Shown piece by piece: positions 1 to 25,053 of a stretch of DNA of 25,341 bases; within the stretch, counting starts at the first letter, position 1; each line of letters starts with the position of its first letter. Both the position numbers and the translations under genes were made by a program. The notes under the pieces were generated by a model. That model saw nothing but the letters and a program-made list of their open reading frames with translations. It was not told the DNA's origin and made no database searches. The stretch comes from a virus. The stretch lies in the UHGV virus genome UHGV-1632499; one strand, 5' to 3'.

Positions 1-74
1 AGAAGTATGGCTCCCAACTGGAGCTGATATTTCGTTTTATCGATCGCGCGCTGGCGATTGGGGTGTTGGCCTGA
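1..74 (+). CDS. 3' end of an upstream gene, truncated by the window edge; function unknown
   Basis: Open frame runs from the window start to a TGA at 72-74 (...KYGSQLELIFRFIDRALAIGVLA*), directly upstream of Q. No similarity recognised. Confidence 0.25.
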   Translation, partial: KYGSQLELIFRFIDRALAIGVLA

Positions 75-91
75 TTTGGTGGAGAAAGTTG

Positions 92-457
92 ATGCGTGAT
101 ATTCAGATGGTTCTGGAGCGTTGGGGAGCATGGGCGGCGAGTGATAGTTCTGGAGTAGACTATTCGCCTATAGCTGCTGGGTTTAAGGGGCTTCTTCCCT
201 ACACAAGCAAAACACGTCAGGCTTGTTCAGATAGTGATGCATTAATTATTGAAGGTTGTCTTGCTCGTCTAAAGCAAAAAAAGCCAGATGAGCACTCGCT
301 GCTTGTGGCACATTATTTATACAGAATATCCAAGCGTAAGATTGCAAAGGTGCGTGGAAAGGATGAAAAATTGGTACGCATAGAAATACAACTAGCCGAA
401 GGATTTATTGATGGTTGCCTTTCAATGTTGGATGTTAACCTTGAAATGGACGCTTAG
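92..457 (+). CDS. Q: Late-gene antitermination protein Q (short Q family)
   Basis: N-terminus MRDIQMVLERWGAWAA... matches my recollection of short Q antiterminators in E. coli prophages. GGAGAAAG lies upstream of the ATG at 92 (the ORF track begins at a TTG at 89). Position just upstream of the lysis cassette fits. Confidence 0.75.
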   Translation: MRDIQMVLERWGAWAASDSSGVDYSPIAAGFKGLLPYTSKTRQACSDSDALIIEGCLARLKQKKPDEHSLLVAHYLYRISKRKIAKVRGKDEKLVRIEIQLAEGFIDGCLSMLDVNLEMDA

Positions 458-463
458 GGTTGC

Positions 464-493
464 ACAGGTTGGCCCCATATGAGGCCAACCTGT
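464..493. terminator. Perfect 11-bp stem hairpin between convergent Q and the antisense cassette; candidate bidirectional terminator or insulator
   Basis: ACAGGTTGGCC (464-474), 8-nt loop, GGCCAACCTGT (483-493). Sits directly after the Q stop and abuts the stop (493-495) of the minus-strand membrane-protein gene. No canonical U-tract immediately follows on either strand. Confidence 0.35.
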
Positions 494-942
494 CACAAGT
501 GGGGGAAGATTTTTCGTAACACTAACCAACACCTTCCGAAGGTATATAGCGAAATTATAAGGGAGGATAAGCCTAACAGTATGAACAGGAAATCAATAGG
601 TTTGCCCGCAACAATAACATCATCAGGTAGAAACATCGCTATCAATGGAAATATACATGCGACGATGAGAGTTAACCCTGTTGAAAGTAATCTATTTACC
701 AGAGTTGGTAACACGTTGTTTTGCTTAAGGGCATTAATTGCTCCTTCCTTATCGCTGTTTGCACTACTAAATATAGATATTGCAGCCAGAACAAAACCAA
801 ACAGGATGCCTGATATAGTCGAGAGCACCCCCGCTGTTGTGAGTACGTCAGCATGCTTCATCGGTTTAAACAGTTTTGTCGCTGCATAGGTCAACAGAAT
901 CCAGAGGACGCATTTCCAGAGAAAAGTGGCTAATTCTCTCAT
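493..942 (-). CDS. Small integral membrane protein with about four predicted TM helices; second gene of an antisense two-gene cargo operon
   Basis: ORF track gives 493..954. The internal ATG at 942 is preferred because GGAGGA sits 4 nt upstream of it. Four hydrophobic stretches (FLWKCVLWILLTYAATKLF; VLSTISGILFGFVLAAISIF; LLSTGLTLIVACIFPLIAMFL; IDFLFILLGLSSLIISLYTF). AT-rich compared with neighbouring phage genes. Confidence 0.7.
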   Translation of the reverse strand: MRELATFLWKCVLWILLTYAATKLFKPMKHADVLTTAGVLSTISGILFGFVLAAISIFSSANSDKEGAINALKQNNVLPTLVNRLLSTGLTLIVACIFPLIAMFLPDDVIVAGKPIDFLFILLGLSSLIISLYTFGRCWLVLRKIFPHL

Positions 943-963
943 TGTGTCCTCCATGCTTGGTTA

Positions 964-1905
964 TTAGTCTCTGCTAGCGAGCTCATACTGTGCAAGATAG
1001 TTCGCGTTATCAATTTTAGCAGATATCATCGCCGTTCTGATATCAGAATCGGATGGATAACCGCTTTTGACAATGATTGTCTTTGTACTGACCAATACTT
1101 GGTCAAGTAGACTTTTGGGCGTTCTATTGGATGGCTCTGTTACATCAATTTTTTTAATTTTTAGACCTCCAGAACCTTTTGGAAAAAGTTCAAGTAGTTC
1201 CTTAATAGCATCGGTGACAGAAGTTTTTAGATAGTTAAACCCTTGTTTTTTCGGGCGAATCCGACCTCGCATATTTAATCTTAGATGCGACCCGCCCATA
1301 CCAACAACCATGTCAATAATTTCATTAGCTAAAGGGTTTTTAATCTTATAATTAGCTTTGTTAAAGTTTCTTGGAGCAGCAACTATAAGATCGAAACTAC
1401 GTAGGATATTTCCGTCCTCAAGCAGTTCCTTCATGCTCTCTTGTTTCCAAATGGCTTCAAAAGTGACGCTTTTTAAATCAGTTTTGTTATACAAAATGAA
1501 TGCCAGATCATTTACTTTGGGCCCTATATGGTTGAGGGTCATAGCTAATAAGTCCGTTTCGTAGTAATAGATAAAATATGTTCTTTCAACTACAGAATCT
1601 TTATCATTTAAAGGAATTGTTCTCTCACTACCTGTAGCATCCTCGATGAACGGTAGTAGGCATTCCCTTCTCCACGATACGTAACCAAAGTAACATTGCA
1701 GTGTGGTATCTTTTTGAAGAATAACTAACTTTAACCCTCGATTTGGGGTGTCTGTTGTGTAAGTTATTGGAAAAGTTACAGTATCTGCTGTGGTCATTTG
1801 CTCAAAGGCTAGTTTTGCAGCAGATGTGCCATCTTTTTTGCTTCCATTACCAGTGAAAAAACCAACTCTCACTCGCCTGGTTTTATTCTTATTTTCTGTA
1901 CTCAT
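964..1905 (-). CDS. Hypothetical 313-aa soluble protein of unknown function; first gene of the antisense two-gene cargo operon
   Basis: Long uninterrupted ORF on the minus strand, followed 21 nt later by the membrane-protein gene (operon-like spacing). AT-rich. No motif I can assign; no GS...DxD nucleotidyltransferase signature, no obvious nuclease or ATPase motif. Confidence 0.7.
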   Translation of the reverse strand: MSTENKNKTRRVRVGFFTGNGSKKDGTSAAKLAFEQMTTADTVTFPITYTTDTPNRGLKLVILQKDTTLQCYFGYVSWRRECLLPFIEDATGSERTIPLNDKDSVVERTYFIYYYETDLLAMTLNHIGPKVNDLAFILYNKTDLKSVTFEAIWKQESMKELLEDGNILRSFDLIVAAPRNFNKANYKIKNPLANEIIDMVVGMGGSHLRLNMRGRIRPKKQGFNYLKTSVTDAIKELLELFPKGSGGLKIKKIDVTEPSNRTPKSLLDQVLVSTKTIIVKSGYPSDSDIRTAMISAKIDNANYLAQYELASRD

Positions 1906-1965
1906 TATCGATCCGAAATAATTTTAGCAACCGTGTGAAAAATACAACAAAAAAAAGAGGAAATC

Positions 1966-1994
1966 ATTAGCGCGGTCCGCAAAAAACATTGTAA
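1966..1994 (+). promoter_or_regulatory. Candidate sigma70 late promoter (pR'-like) upstream of the terminator and lysis genes
   Basis: TTAGCG (1966-1971), 17-bp spacer, TGTAAT (1989-1994). Located where a Q-dependent late promoter is expected. Match to consensus is weak. Confidence 0.2.
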
Positions 1995-2027
1995 TCTGTT
2001 AAGAGTGGTTACTTCGCCACACAGCTT

Positions 2028-2057
2028 AAACCCGCCGTCGAGCGGGTTTTGTCGTTT
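2028..2057 (+). terminator. Rho-independent terminator, probably the tR'-like late terminator that Q reads through
   Basis: AAACCCGC (2028-2035), 6-nt loop, GCGGGTTT (2042-2049), then a T-rich tract TGTCGTTTCTG. Lies between Q and the holin, as tR' does in lambdoid phages. Confidence 0.55.
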
Positions 2058-2201
2058 CTGTGGCTGGGGATTCGTTGGTCCTGGCCTATTCCGCAGTTCT
2101 CCATCGGTTCGGCTTCTTTGATGTTTCCGCTTCTGATTTGCGGTACATGATGTTCCCTCAATTTGCACCTGCTGTATCAGCGAGGTGAGAGATAACTACA
2201 A

Positions 2202-2528
2202 ATGCCTCATAACCCAAATACCTGGCTGGAGTTGGTCCAGAGCTGGTGGCGTGGAGACACACCGCTGGGCGCAGTGATTATGTCGATCGTTATGGCTGGC
2301 TTGCGCATTGCCTATTTTGGCGGTGGTGGTGGCTGGAAACGAAAAACGCTCGAGATTTTGCTCTGTGGTGCTCTGACGCTGACTTTTGCATCCGCTCTTG
2401 AGTATGTCGGATGGCCTAAATCTCTTTCTGTTGCCATTGGTGGCGGCGTTGGGCTGATCGGGGTCGATGCTATTCGTGGGGCTGCAATGAGAGTAATCGG
2501 TAATAAGTTTGGTGGCTCTAAGGAGTAA
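2202..2528 (+). CDS. Holin (class I, three predicted TM segments)
   Basis: 108 aa with three hydrophobic segments and a charged C-terminus, immediately upstream of the R endolysin. GAGGTGAGAG lies upstream of the ATG. Confidence 0.75.
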   Translation: MPHNPNTWLELVQSWWRGDTPLGAVIMSIVMAGLRIAYFGGGGGWKRKTLEILLCGALTLTFASALEYVGWPKSLSVAIGGGVGLIGVDAIRGAAMRVIGNKFGGSKE

Positions 2529-2531
2529 TTT

Positions 2532-3014
2532 ATGCAGGTACTAAATTCCCAGCGTAAAGCTTTCCTCGATATGGTGGCATGGTCAGAAGGAACGGATAAC
2601 GGGCGACAACCGACACGTAACCACGGTTATGACGTTATTGTCGGAGGTGAACTGTTCACTGATTACTCCGATCACCCTCGCAAACTTGTCACGCTAAACC
2701 CGAAACTTAAATCAACAGCCGCAGGACGTTATCAGCTTCTTTCACGCTGGTGGGATGCTTACCGTAAGCAGCTTGGGCTGAAAGACTTCTCTCCAAAAAG
2801 CCAGGATGCTGTGGCATTGCAGCAGATTAAAGAGCGTGGTGCTTTACCGATGATTGATCGCGGCGATATCCGTCAGGCTATTGATCGTTGCAGCAATATC
2901 TGGGCGTCATTGCCGGGCGCTGGTTATGGTCAGTTCGAACATAAGGTTGACAGCCTGATTGAAAAATTCAAAGAATCGGGCGGAACGGTCAGAGAAATTC
3001 AGCTATATGAGTAG
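2532..3014 (+). CDS. R: Endolysin, lambda R-type lytic transglycosylase
   Basis: Near-identical over most of its length to lambda R as I recall it ([134 protein letters not shown]). AAGGAG RBS upstream. Confidence 0.95.
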
Positions 3015-3471
3015 AGTAACTGCGATTCTGTCCTCTCTGGTTATCTGCACCATCGTCTGCCTATCATGGGCTGTTAATCATTATCGTGATAACGCCATCG
3101 CCTACAAAGAACAGCGCGATAAAGCGAAGGAAAAACTCAGCCAGGCGAACGCCACCATTACTGAGATGCAGCAGCGCCAGCGTGATGTTTCTGCGCTCGA
3201 TGCGAAATACACCGGAGAACTTGCAAATGCTAAAGCAACTATTGAACAGCTTCAGCGTGATGTTGCTGTTGGCACTAAGCGGCTGTTCCTCGCCGCTAGT
3301 TGCCCGAGAGTGCAATCAACGACCATTACCACCAGCCTGGATGATGCTACCGCCCCCCGACTTACTGACACCGCTCAACGGGATTATTTCACCCTCAGAG
3401 AGAGAATTGAAATCAGTTATAAACAGATAAGAGCATTGCAGGACTATATCTCTAGTCAGTGTGAAAAATAA
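3007..3471 (+). CDS. Rz: Rz inner-membrane spanin (i-spanin)
   Basis: [34 protein letters not shown]... closely resembles lambda Rz. The start overlaps the R stop as in lambda. ORF track begins earlier, at 2959. Confidence 0.9.
3227..3430 (+). CDS. Rz1: Rz1 outer-membrane lipoprotein spanin (o-spanin), embedded in the +1 frame of Rz
   Basis: Within ORF 3086..3430, the internal ATG at 3227 gives [22 protein letters not shown]... (lipobox LSGC) followed by a proline-rich [26 protein letters not shown], like lambda Rz1. Confidence 0.85.
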
Positions 3472-3528
3472 AATTGCTTTCGATGTATGGATCTGGACAT
3501 CTTTTTTTTCTACTATGCTGACTGAGAA

Positions 3529-4311
3529 TTGAAACGTATATGGATATTCTATATGAAAAGAAAAAAATTAGAAGGTCCCGGGTGTGAATCATATGAAGGG
3601 TTAGATGTTGAATATTATATTGATTCCGAAACGGGGGAATTTAAAGCGGTTTATACATTCAATAATGAAATTGTAGATCGCATAAAATTGAGTGGGCGTA
3701 TTGCCGATAGAGCATCTTCACTGTCCCTAATTCATAGGGACTTAAAAAGTGCTAAAGAGTGGTACCAAATAGCTAATGAACTGGCAGGGAGAAATGAATT
3801 AAGGACAGATGGCAAGTTATACGGGAATATACTTGATCTAGATTTATCAAGTGAAATTAGAGCGTTATTTGTGGCAAGCCTAACGTTTTATGGTAAAGCT
3901 TTCTCTGAAGCTAAAGGGAGAAAGTTAAAGATGGAGCGTGATTGGCTTGATTCTGAATATTTTGGGTTGCATGACTGTATTATTAACTACAGGCATAATT
4001 TTGCAGCACATAGCGGCAACCAAGACTATGAGTCAGCAGAAACTTCATTGTTACTAATAAGGAAAAATGGGAAAACATTTTATCAAGCAGTGACAGATAG
4101 AAAACAACTGAGCATGATTGGTGTCGAGGACGAGCATGTTGATATGATTAATTTATTTGAACATGCGATACAGGTTGTTGAGAAAAAATATAATGAAACA
4201 TTAGAGAGAATTAGAACCTATGTCATGCAAAAGAGTTATTCTTTTTGGTGTTTAGCTGCCACAGGGAAAGATCCCGTCAATTTAGATAAGTTAAATAAGA
4301 AGAAAAAATAA
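3529..4311 (+). CDS. Hypothetical 260-aa protein; AT-rich orphan cargo gene between spanins and the packaging module
   Basis: Strongly AT-rich and lysine-rich ORF unlike its neighbours, followed by its own terminator. ORF track start at 3529 is a TTG; the first ATG is at 3553 (MKRKKLEGPG...). No family recognised. Confidence 0.65.
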   Translation: MKRIWIFYMKRKKLEGPGCESYEGLDVEYYIDSETGEFKAVYTFNNEIVDRIKLSGRIADRASSLSLIHRDLKSAKEWYQIANELAGRNELRTDGKLYGNILDLDLSSEIRALFVASLTFYGKAFSEAKGRKLKMERDWLDSEYFGLHDCIINYRHNFAAHSGNQDYESAETSLLLIRKNGKTFYQAVTDRKQLSMIGVEDEHVDMINLFEHAIQVVEKKYNETLERIRTYVMQKSYSFWCLAATGKDPVNLDKLNKKKK

Positions 4312-4347
4312 ACCTACTCTTCACATTAGTAACATTAGTAGATGCTA

Positions 4348-4377
4348 AGCCACTAGCAATCGATGGTGGCTTTTTTA
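4348..4377 (+). terminator. Rho-independent terminator downstream of the 260-aa cargo gene
   Basis: AGCCAC (4348-4353), loop, GTGGCT (4366-4371), running into TTTTTTATT. Confidence 0.5.
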
Positions 4378-4390
4378 TTGGAGCTTACCA

Positions 4391-4741
4391 ATGCCACCAC
4401 GAACCCCAAAAGCCTGCCGTGTTCGCGGCTGCCGCTCTACAACCACAGACCCGTCAGGCTACTGCGAAAGCCACAAAAGCGAAGGCTGGAAGCAATACAA
4501 GCCAGGTCAGTCCCGTCATCAGCGCGGTTATGGTTCGAAGTGGGACGCTATCCGCGCGCGTGTGCTGAAGCGTGACAAAGGTTTATGTCAGTTATGTCTG
4601 CGTGCCGGTGTGGTGCGTGAGGCGAAAACCGTTGACCACATCATCCCTAAAGCGCATGGCGGCACTGATGCCGACTGTAATCTGCAGAGTCTGTGTTGGC
4701 CGTGTCATAAGGCGAAGACGGCCCGTGAACGGTTAAAGTGA
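4391..4741 (+). CDS. HNH homing-type endonuclease associated with the terminase
   Basis: Cys-rich N-terminus (CRVRGCRSTTTDPSGYCESH), HNH core (DHIIPKAHGG...NLQSLCWPCH), and position directly upstream of the terminase small subunit as in HK97-like packaging modules. Confidence 0.85.
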   Translation: MPPRTPKACRVRGCRSTTTDPSGYCESHKSEGWKQYKPGQSRHQRGYGSKWDAIRARVLKRDKGLCQLCLRAGVVREAKTVDHIIPKAHGGTDADCNLQSLCWPCHKAKTARERLK

Positions 4742-4767
4742 TAATAACTCTCAACTGTCTGAGGGGA

Positions 4768-4827
4768 GGGGCGGGTCACATCCCTGTGACCTGACGTCTT
4801 CCGGACTGCCCGCCCCATCGTTTTTTT
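4768..4827 (+). terminator. Nested hairpin plus T-tract between HNH and terS; terminator and/or cos-region structure
   Basis: Outer stem GGGGCGGG (4768-4775) pairs with CCCGCCCC (4809-4816). Inner palindromes GTCACA/TGTGAC and TCCGGA. Followed by ATCGTTTTTTTATA. Confidence 0.4.
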
Positions 4828-4866
4828 ATACCCGCGAAAAATGAAATTTAACCAGGAGTGCCGCAT

Positions 4867-5361
4867 ATGGCTGGAACGGCGGGGCGTTCCGGGCGTCGCC
4901 CCAAGCCAACGGCGCGCAAGGCGTTGGCCGGAAACCCCGGCAAGCGAGCCCTGAACAAAGATGAACCTGTTTTTACGCCCATCAAAGGTGTTGAGCCACC
5001 GGAGTGGTTCGCAGAAGAAGATCTCCCTCTCGCCACGATCATGTGGCAACTGACAACCAAAGAACTCTGCGGTCAGGGCCTGCTGTGCGTGACTGACCTG
5101 GCGGTACTTGAGCGGTGGTGCGTGGCCTATGAGTTCTGGCGACGTGCCGTGAAAAATATTGCCAGACAGGGCAACACCATCACCGGTGCAATGGGCGGCA
5201 GGCTCAAAAACCCGGAGCTGACCGCCAAGAAAGAACAGGAGTCCGAGATGAGCAGCACGGGGGCAATGCTCGGACTCGACCCCAGCAGCCGCCAGCGTCT
5301 GATAGGCCTGGCGGGGCAGAAGAAAGCCACTAACCCGTTTCTGAAAATCATCGAATCATGA
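4867..5361 (+). CDS. Terminase small subunit
   Basis: [27 protein letters not shown]... is a typical small-terminase N-terminus. AGGAG lies 8 nt upstream of the ATG at 4867 (ORF track starts at a GTG at 4858). Stop overlaps the terL start. Confidence 0.85.
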
Positions 5362-7091
5362 GCCGGAAATCTTACCCCAACGTAAATGCTGCCAATCAGT
5401 ATGCCCGTGATGTCGTGCGCGGAAAGATTGTGGCCTGCCAGTTTGTGATTCAGGCCTGCCAGCGCCATCTTGATGACCTGATGGCGGAAAAAAGTAAGTC
5501 GTTTCGTTACCGCTTCGACAAGGACCTGGCTGAACGGGCCGCCAAATTTATTCAGCTGTTGCCGCACACCAAGGGTGAGTGGGCATTCAAGAGGATGCCC
5601 ATCACGCTGGAGCCGTGGCAGCTCTTTGTGATCTGCTGCGCGTTTGGCTGGGTCAATAAAGGCTCCCGGCTGCGCCGCTTCCGTGAGGTGTATACCGAAA
5701 TCCCCCGTAAGAACGGCAAATCGGCAATCTCTGCCGGTGTTGCCCTGTATTGTTTTGCCTGTGATAACGAGTTTGGCGCGGAAGTGTATTCCGGTGCCAC
5801 GACAGAGAAACAGGCGTGGGAAGTCTTTCGCCCGGCGCGACTGATGTGTAAACGCACACCCATGCTGACGGAAGCGTTCGGGATTGAGGTTAACGCCTCA
5901 AACATGAATCGTCCGGAGGATGGCGCGCGGTTTGAACCGCTGATCGGTAACCCCGGTGATGGTTCATCACCCCACTGTGCGGTGGTGGATGAATATCACG
6001 AGCACGCCACCGATGCGCTTTACACCACGATGCTTACCGGGATGGGGGCGAGACGTCAGCCACTGATGTGGGCCATTACTACTGCCGGGTACAACATTGA
6101 GGGGCCGTGCTACGACAAGCGACGGGAAGTTATCGAGATGCTCAACGGGTCGGTACCCAACGATGAACTGTTCGGGATCATCTATACCGTTGACGAAGGC
6201 GATGACTGGACCGACCCGCAGGTGCTGGAAAAAGCTAACCCGAATATTGGCGTGTCGGTTTATCGCGAATTTTTGTTAAGTCAGCAGCAGCGTGCGAAAA
6301 ATAACGCCCGTCTGGCAAACGTCTTTAAAACAAAACACCTCAATATCTGGGTGTCGGCGCGTTCGGCGTATTTCAACCTGGTGAGCTGGCAGAGCTGCGA
6401 GGATAAATCACTGACCCTTGAGCAGTTCGAGGGGCAGCCGTGCATTCTGGCCTTTGACCTGGCGCGTAAGCTGGATATGAACAGCATGGCGCGACTTTAT
6501 ACCCGCGAGATTGACGGTAAAACGCATTACTACAGTGTGGCCCCGCGTTTCTGGGTACCGTATGACACGGTGTACAGCGTCGAGAAAAATGAAGATCGCC
6601 GGACAGCCGAACGCTTTCAGAAATGGGTGGAAATGGGCGTCCTGACCGTTACCGATGGTGCGGAGGTGGATTATCGCTACATCCTCGAGGAGGCCAAAGC
6701 GGCGAACAAAATCAGCCCGGTCAGTGAGTCACCCATCGACCCCTTCGGGGCGACCGGGTTGTCACATGACCTTGCTGATGAAGGCCTGAATCCCGTTACT
6801 ATCATTCAGAACTACACCAACATGTCCGACCCGATGAAAGAGCTGGAAGCGGCAATTGAATCGGGGCGCTTTCATCATGATGGCAATCCCATCATGACCT
6901 GGTGTATCGGCAACGTGGTCGGCAAAACCATTCCGGGTAACGATGATGTGGTGAAGCCCGTCAAAGAGCAGGCGGAAAACAAAATCGACGGTGCAGTTGC
7001 GCTGATTATGGCGGTTGGCAGAGCCATGCTGTACGAGAAAGAAGACACGCTGTCTGACCACATTGAGTCCTACGGGATCCGCTCGCTTTAA
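5358..7091 (+). CDS. Terminase large subunit (ATPase and nuclease)
   Basis: 577 aa, with a Walker A-like PRKNGKS, an acidic VVDEYHE motif, and a C-terminal nuclease-like region. Order terS-terL-portal. Confidence 0.95.
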
Positions 7092-24489: not shown

Positions 24490-25053
24490 ATGATTTACGG
24501 GTATGTTCGTGTATCAACAAATCATCAGGATACAGAGTTGCAACGTCTTGCACTTGAGTCAGCTGGCTGTGAGCGAATTTATGAAGAATATGCCAGTGGC
24601 AGAACAGCTAATCGCCCTGTGTTAAAGGAATTAATTTCGGTGATGAAAAGTGGAGATGAGTTGATTGTCTGGAAGCTAGATCGGATAGGGAGAAATGTGC
24701 TACATGCGCTATTGATGTTTCAAAATCTGCACGAAAAAGGCGTTAATTTTCGGAGTATTACAGATGGCGTAGACCTGAAAACAGCAAGTGGTCGCTATAA
24801 TTTCCGTAATATTCTTTCTGCTGCGCAGTATGAATCTGATTTGAATAGCGAGCGAACTTTAGCTGGTTTGGCTATTGCCAGATCCAAAGGCCGGATTGGT
24901 GGGCGTAGACCGAAGTTTAGCGACGAGCAGTGGCAACAGATGGGAGCGCTCATAGCGGCAGGGAAATCACGGCGTTATGTTGCACGTATCTATAACGTTG
25001 GGCTATCAACCCTATATAAACGATTTCCTGTTACTGGCATTCAAACGAAATAA
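24490..25053 (+). CDS. pin: Site-specific serine recombinase, DNA invertase (Pin/Gin/Hin/Cin family)
   Basis: 187 aa with YVRVST (catalytic Ser), VWKLDRIGR, NFRSITD, GRIGGRRPK and a C-terminal helix-turn-helix ending STLYKRF; collinear with Gin/Hin as I recall them. Adjacent to the invertible fibre segment. Confidence 0.95.
   Translation: MIYGYVRVSTNHQDTELQRLALESAGCERIYEEYASGRTANRPVLKELISVMKSGDELIVWKLDRIGRNVLHALLMFQNLHEKGVNFRSITDGVDLKTASGRYNFRNILSAAQYESDLNSERTLAGLAIARSKGRIGGRRPKFSDEQWQQMGALIAAGKSRRYVARIYNVGLSTLYKRFPVTGIQTK

Follow-up and report, generated by a model that had tools for sequence, protein, structure and literature searches.

What are two genes transcribed against the late operon doing between the antiterminator gene Q and the late regulatory region of a lambdoid prophage, and what kind of system do they encode? 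A first-pass annotation of this locus had proposed an acquired exclusion module, possibly of a previously undescribed type, with the two-gene layout of lambda RexA/RexB. Rex was the first abortive-infection system to be discovered, about 70 years ago. The stretch of DNA analysed here (the window; 25,341 nucleotides of the virus genome UHGV-1632499) corresponds to the right arm of an E. coli prophage of the lambdoid type and matches a region of the E. coli EC1722-1 chromosome at 100% identity. Its genes follow the order Q, a short late regulatory region, holin, endolysin and Rz (2202..3471), HNH endonuclease, terminase, portal and major head, with tail sheath, tape measure and baseplate genes and a Pin-like invertase downstream of the head genes. 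Q (89..457, plus strand; PF06530, E 8e-52) is convergent with the gene pair. The pR'-like late regulatory region (1951..2060, plus strand), which is conserved in five loci and divergent from the pair, contains, besides a tR'-like terminator at 2028..2049 (site scan and fold), the short inverted repeat GCGGTCCGC at about 1971..1979 and a block of conserved sequence, GTGGTTACTTCGCCACACAGC. Most of positions 1966..2050 on the plus strand is kept across five prophages from four genera despite differing adjacent cassette alleles; this segment is probably the pR'/Q-utilisation site, in which case the pR' leader would be very short.

Both minus-strand open reading frames that had been noted between Q and the late region are present as described (964..1905 and 493..954), and as conserved coding genes with many homologues they are not chance reading frames. 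The first, a listed open reading frame at 964..1905, encodes a soluble, basic protein of 313 aa (pI 9.3), the RexA-like member of the pair. The second encodes its RexB-like partner, for which two start codons come into consideration: an upstream ATG at 954, giving 153 aa (493..954), and an ATG at 942, giving 149 aa (493..942). Nearly all homologues of the small protein are 145-149 aa long, the 149-aa form is the one annotated in RefSeq, and a GGAGGA Shine-Dalgarno sequence (952..947, minus strand) ends 4 nt before the ATG at 942, so that, judging from these sequence features, 942 is almost certainly the true start. In the sequence itself, the spacer between the stop of the large gene at 964 and this start measures 21 nt (943..963, minus strand), just as had been claimed, and together with its ribosome binding site implies a single operon; a tight gap or an overlap between the two genes is found in distant homologues too. 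The small protein had been credited with about four transmembrane helices. In agreement with this, AlphaFold predicts four long helices (residues 2-24, 30-63, 77-104 and 116-145) and a short one (68-74), and the hydropathy profile is concordant.

That the pair is cargo can be read from a related phage which lacks it. In PhiR49_2 the sequences corresponding to window positions 1-452 and 1951-2050 are contiguous, lying about 10 bp apart (blastn and alignment), and positions 453..1950 of the window are thus an insertion relative to this empty site, which confirms the earlier view of an acquired unit. The inserted DNA has a GC content of 39.3%, whereas the lysis genes reach 49.4% and the structural genes 54.0%; it is therefore AT-rich against the phage backbone, again as had been noted. 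At its 3' end, between the convergent Q and the small gene, the cassette carries a strong stem-loop (464..493), whose arms (464-474 and 483-493) are perfect over 11 bp and can be extended to 15-nt arms at 93%; folded as minus-strand RNA it reaches -27.3 kcal/mol (z = -4.66). The perfect hairpin that the first-pass annotation had placed at the end of the unit is thus real; it starts 7 nt past the end of Q and shares nucleotides with the small gene's stop codon, and it is located inside the DNA missing from the PhiR49_2 empty site. It is followed by no U-run on either strand and is hence not a canonical intrinsic terminator. At the other end, the region upstream of the cassette (1906..1950, minus strand) contains a weak candidate sigma-70 promoter picked out by eye, consisting of TTGTTG (1950..1945), 18 nt and TAAAAT (1926..1921), which would stand back to back with the late-promoter region. 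A scan for the sigma-70 consensus called no promoter for the cassette, and an Rfam scan of positions 1..6000 found no RNA family. An element AAATTATT at the position of the candidate promoter is common to the cassette of the window and alleles of the cdtI type.

The distribution of the pair fits this picture. Among 5426 complete E. coli genomes, the cassette query is covered to at least 80% in only 72, and a profile search of genome contigs with the alignment of close homologues yielded three loci only. Versions of the pair with 43-56% identity are found in phage cdtI, in vB_EcoS-733R5 and 716R3, and in prophages of Citrobacter braakii and Xenorhabdus stockiae, all of them antisense and right after Q. 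The flanks in cdtI are 86-90% identical at the DNA level, and divergent alleles of the pair between such flanks constitute a mosaic pattern as for exchangeable cargo. The slot between Q and the late region is thus empty in PhiR49_2 and occupied by divergent alleles elsewhere in the related prophages surveyed, which marks the Q-to-pR' gap as a cargo slot in lambdoid prophages. Beyond lambdoid phages the pair is also present, at 34% identity, in a 14.6-kb Vinavirales prophage of Vibrio cyclitrophicus, where it adjoins the integrase gene.

To which families do the two proteins belong? In the PHROGs collection they fall, with strong matches, into phrog_7651 and phrog_8552 (E 2e-44 for the small protein and the latter), both families without assigned function. 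Scans of both proteins against Pfam, PADLOC and NCBIfam gave nothing above noise, the weak library matches (DUF4064, MusI, LIC_10202) all being far below the cut-offs; the Pfam and PADLOC searches that had been suggested as a check therefore produced no family match for either protein. The 313-aa protein of the window likewise does not match the Pfam model PF20505 (DUF6731). Of its close homologues, however, 23 of 38 match this model, at identities down to 41%, as do 76 of 85 distant family members, and through these relatives the large protein probably belongs to the DUF6731 family, a name that NCBI already gives to some of its homologues. A full scan of 1.84 billion representative proteins returned no more than 170 clusters at E<=1e-3, and those members that have names belong to Enterobacterales, Aeromonas, Pseudoalteromonas, Shewanella and Vibrio. 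A full-text search for DUF6731 or PF20505 found no paper in the library searched. In vB_EcoS-733R5 (ON470608.1, 30253..31194) and 716R3 (ON470622.1) the homologue of the 313-aa protein is annotated as a 'portal (connector) protein', which is almost certainly a misannotation given its antisense location between Q and the holin gene and its RexA-like fold.

Pairing with a small gene is a constant feature of this family. In all seven distant DUF6731 loci examined, a small open reading frame of 132-152 aa directly follows the large gene, often overlapping it, and the seven encoded proteins are hydrophobic and match the profile of the small protein of the window (E 1e-7 to 1e-33), which indicates an obligate, co-inherited pair. 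One distant pair, on a metagenomic contig (L030, 3826..6276), lies downstream of a CI-like helix-turn-helix repressor gene on the same strand, with small genes divergently transcribed on the other side, an arrangement that resembles the cI-rexA-rexB layout of lambda. These observations bear on the supposition that the RexA-like protein chiefly serves the development of the prophage itself and that exclusion is a by-product. The cassette does abut Q and the late region, its position recurs in several Enterobacterales prophages, and its large protein is basic. However, close relatives that have this Q and late region do without the cassette, which is thus dispensable for development; the pair occurs in unrelated elements devoid of Q and pR', among them the Vibrio Vinavirales prophage and the metagenomic loci; and its strict co-inheritance with a membrane partner argues that both proteins act together. 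We therefore regard a primary role in prophage development as rather unlikely.

An indication of what the pair does comes from the predicted structure of the 313-aa protein. Structure prediction and a structural search, a check proposed earlier, revealed a RexA-like fold, itself RdgC-like, in which a split globular domain is interrupted by an inserted dimerisation domain. The order of secondary structure elements is that of RexA, namely an N-terminal sheet and two helices, the insert, and a C-terminal strand with a kinked helix, and the insert itself, with four strands and three to four helices, corresponds to the inserted dimerisation domain of RexA. The structural alignment with RexA gives about 12% identity, and the model is weak in residues 82-110. 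Further structural matches include Iml3, Chl4/CENP-N, TBP-like folds, RdgC, Cas2 and the epimerase 3oh8, all of which except the TBP-like folds are structural neighbours of RexA itself (PMC11077077). At the level of profiles, hhalign aligned 85 diverse DUF6731 sequences with 27 RexA homologues over 220 colinear columns (E 2.4e-4, probability 44%), including a common GPxxxDLxxFL motif; the reversed control gave an E-value of 0.18 and the best of 30 column shuffles 0.0096. This score is far lower than that reported for RexApp, which reaches 98% HHpred probability (PMC12894663).

Other comparisons showed no such similarity. The RexA models of Pfam (PF15969) and PADLOC did not match the large protein at E<=1, and the PADLOC model recognised lambda RexA itself at 9e-110. 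A search of PDB sequences with close and broad family profiles returned no RexA (8TWQ) and only sub-threshold eIF2-alpha noise, and comparisons of the family profile with the single lambda RexA sequence, and of the partner profile with RexB, were insignificant, so that profiles of whole families on both sides were needed. Foldseek searches of both models against BFVD returned uncharacterised proteins and not lambda RexA or RexB; both models have their top match in one and the same metagenomic phage, ctylc9.

For the small protein the likeness to RexB begins with gross features: it has 149 aa compared with 144 aa, a pI of 9.4 compared with 9.3, and is in both cases encoded downstream of the large gene. 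The RexB models of Pfam (PF15968) and PADLOC, for which lambda RexB served as a working positive control, do not match it. Using a RexB alignment built from loci with RexA homologues and a broad alignment of the partner family, hhalign reported an E-value of 2.2e-4 over 49 columns that cover the first loop, TM2 and the central loop, a score to be read with the caution that matches of transmembrane segments can be compositional; E-values in the controls were 0.35 for the reversed profile and 0.022 at best for 30 shuffles. The motif common to the partner and RexB, H-x-D ... G ... AA(I/L)(S/T), is located in TM2 and the central loop. In the Rex-like protein gp31 of Sbash, the substitutions R70A and D73A in the central loop abolish defence (PMC6426596). 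The second match of the small model in BFVD is a 165-aa Sbash protein (E 0.025, TM-score about 0.5); gp31 also has 165 aa and may be the protein matched. Profile comparisons with the single gp30 and gp31 sequences of Sbash gave nothing.

The evidence for homology with Rex consists of one structural search and two modest profile-profile scores. On this basis the cassette is probably a remote homologue of the lambda RexA/RexB exclusion system, carried as a moron by an e14/SfV-like lambdoid prophage. Of the initial proposal, the Rex-like two-gene layout stood, with a RexA-like fold in the soluble protein and four transmembrane helices in its partner, and the notion of a previously undescribed system gave way to that of a remote Rex relative. 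The pair is best filed as a new, unannotated lineage among the Rex-like systems, with a kind of defence that is already known. Defence or exclusion by a mechanism unrelated to Rex, in which the large protein would have only an RdgC/Iml3-type DNA-binding fold in common with RexA and the four-helix partner would be analogous to RexB, appears unlikely to us; the absence of matches to Rex models, profile-profile probabilities below 50%, the occurrence of the RexA fold in RdgC and Iml3/Chl4, which are not defence proteins, and the exclusively uncharacterised BFVD matches would agree with it. A system like Kiwa, in which KwaA is the membrane sensor and KwaB the effector, is extremely unlikely: a soluble protein of roughly 310 aa next to a protein with four transmembrane helices is superficially alike in size, but the large protein matches neither the KwaB model (DUF4868) nor KwaB structurally, and the gene order is different.

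How, then, does the pair compare with the Rex-like systems already described, of which a 2026 paper counts only five? The 313-aa protein is 34 aa longer than RexA of lambda (PF15969/PF15968; PDB 8TWQ). Whereas lambda Rex is encoded downstream of cI in the immunity region, the pair in the window lies antisense between Q and pR' and is, unlike lambda Rex, presumably not under pRM control. The window pair is not located behind a repressor gene in the immunity region; the distant member L030 does follow a CI-like repressor gene. RexABpp of the Pseudomonas putida prophage P1 (PP_5643/PP_5644) is located near a CI-like repressor, and RexBpp has at least 181 aa compared with 149 aa here (PMC12894663). 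The validated Rex-like pairs gp30/gp31 of mycobacteriophage Sbash and gp44/gp43 of the Gordonia phage CarolAnn come from phages of actinobacteria; in these a cytoplasmic protein activates an effector with four transmembrane helices, whose central cytoplasmic loop is essential. Sbash gp30, with 372 aa, is larger than the 313-aa protein, and there is no similarity to gp30/gp31 at the profile level. Other published systems of the Rex type, Sbash among them, also deviate from the immunity-region arrangement of lambda Rex. The gp30/31 genes of Sbash are found directly after the lysis genes, and the pair in the window is likewise beside a lysis cassette. This proximity to the S, R and Rz genes, together with the Sbash parallel, could be taken to mean that the small protein acts in lysis timing or in superinfection exclusion, as a holin, an antiholin or a SieB-like protein, with the large protein as its regulator. 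Yet the two genes run against the late operon and lie upstream of pR', the pair is also found at a distance from lysis genes (beside the integrase gene in the Vibrio element and the repressor gene in L030), and neither protein matches a holin or SieB family, all of which makes a role in lysis very unlikely.

If the cassette is indeed a Rex homologue, its mode of action can be sketched in four steps, all of which are drawn from lambda Rex, Sbash gp30/31 and P. putida RexABpp. A promoter of its own would drive leftward transcription of the operon in the lysogen, and this expression would not depend on transcription of the late genes. The RexA-like protein of 313 aa, which is probably a dimer that binds DNA, would sense either a product of a superinfecting phage or a replication or recombination intermediate, and would then activate the 149-aa RexB-like protein, probably via the conserved cytoplasmic loop between TM2 and TM3. 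The RexB-like protein would permeabilise or depolarise the inner membrane, whereupon ATP would fall, growth would stop and the infection would be aborted. Because the cassette is convergent with Q, antisense read-through is conceivable, and it is tempting to speculate that early phage transcription reading through Q, antisense to the cassette, might silence the module during lytic growth of the prophage itself.

A bolder and more doubtful reading, which we put forward tentatively, is that DUF6731 and its four-helix partner represent a sixth, unrecognised Rex-type lineage of Gammaproteobacteria (Enterobacterales, Aeromonas, Vibrio, Shewanella and Pseudoalteromonas) and their phages that defence-finder models have missed, that the shared motif in TM2 and the central loop is the gating or RexA-docking element of all RexB-like effectors, and that the convergence with Q provides an antisense off-switch. 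If true, a function could be given to Pfam DUF6731 and to two PHROG families. A divergent Rex family in E. coli would offer hundreds of natural variants that are easily tested in K-12, as well as a means of telling, by comparison, which residues are conserved in the RexA-like sensor and in its RexB-like effector, and would thus help to address the long-standing questions of the Rex trigger and of RexB gating. As PADLOC 2.0.0 misses the pair, prophage-encoded defence is under-counted.

The window contains further features that deserve mention. A second AT-rich cargo gene (3529..4311, plus strand; GC 35.0%) lies between Rz and the HNH and terminase genes and encodes a protein of 260 aa, which matches phrog_8440, a family without assigned function, and has no match in Pfam, PADLOC or PDB. 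Homologues with 33% and 29% identity are found in a small prophage of V. cyclitrophicus (PQ189351) and in Escherichia phage 2H10, respectively, and the gene may be a further moron or defence candidate. The V. cyclitrophicus homologues of the Rex-like pair (L002; PQ189356.1, 1389..2896) and of the 260-aa protein (PQ189351.1, 2676..3392) are both located in prophages of the Vinavirales type, which suggests a cargo pool common to tailed and non-tailed temperate phages. Within the Rz gene, an open reading frame in another frame (3086..3430, plus strand) contains the lipoprotein-box-like sequence LLALSGCSS and looks like an embedded Rz1 spanin gene, an ordinary component of lambdoid lysis cassettes. 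At the end of the tail-fibre region, a Pin/Gin-like DNA invertase gene (24490..25053, plus strand; phrog_125, E 8e-73) points to a host-range segment that can be inverted, like those of e14, Mu and P1. The same prophage arm, with a cassette that is 99.9% identical, is also present on the E. coli plasmid record pHNAH212872-2 (L039; NZ_CP104632.1, 72598..86218), which is circular and 100.9 kb in size; either a prophage has integrated into a plasmid here, or the record may be a phage-plasmid.
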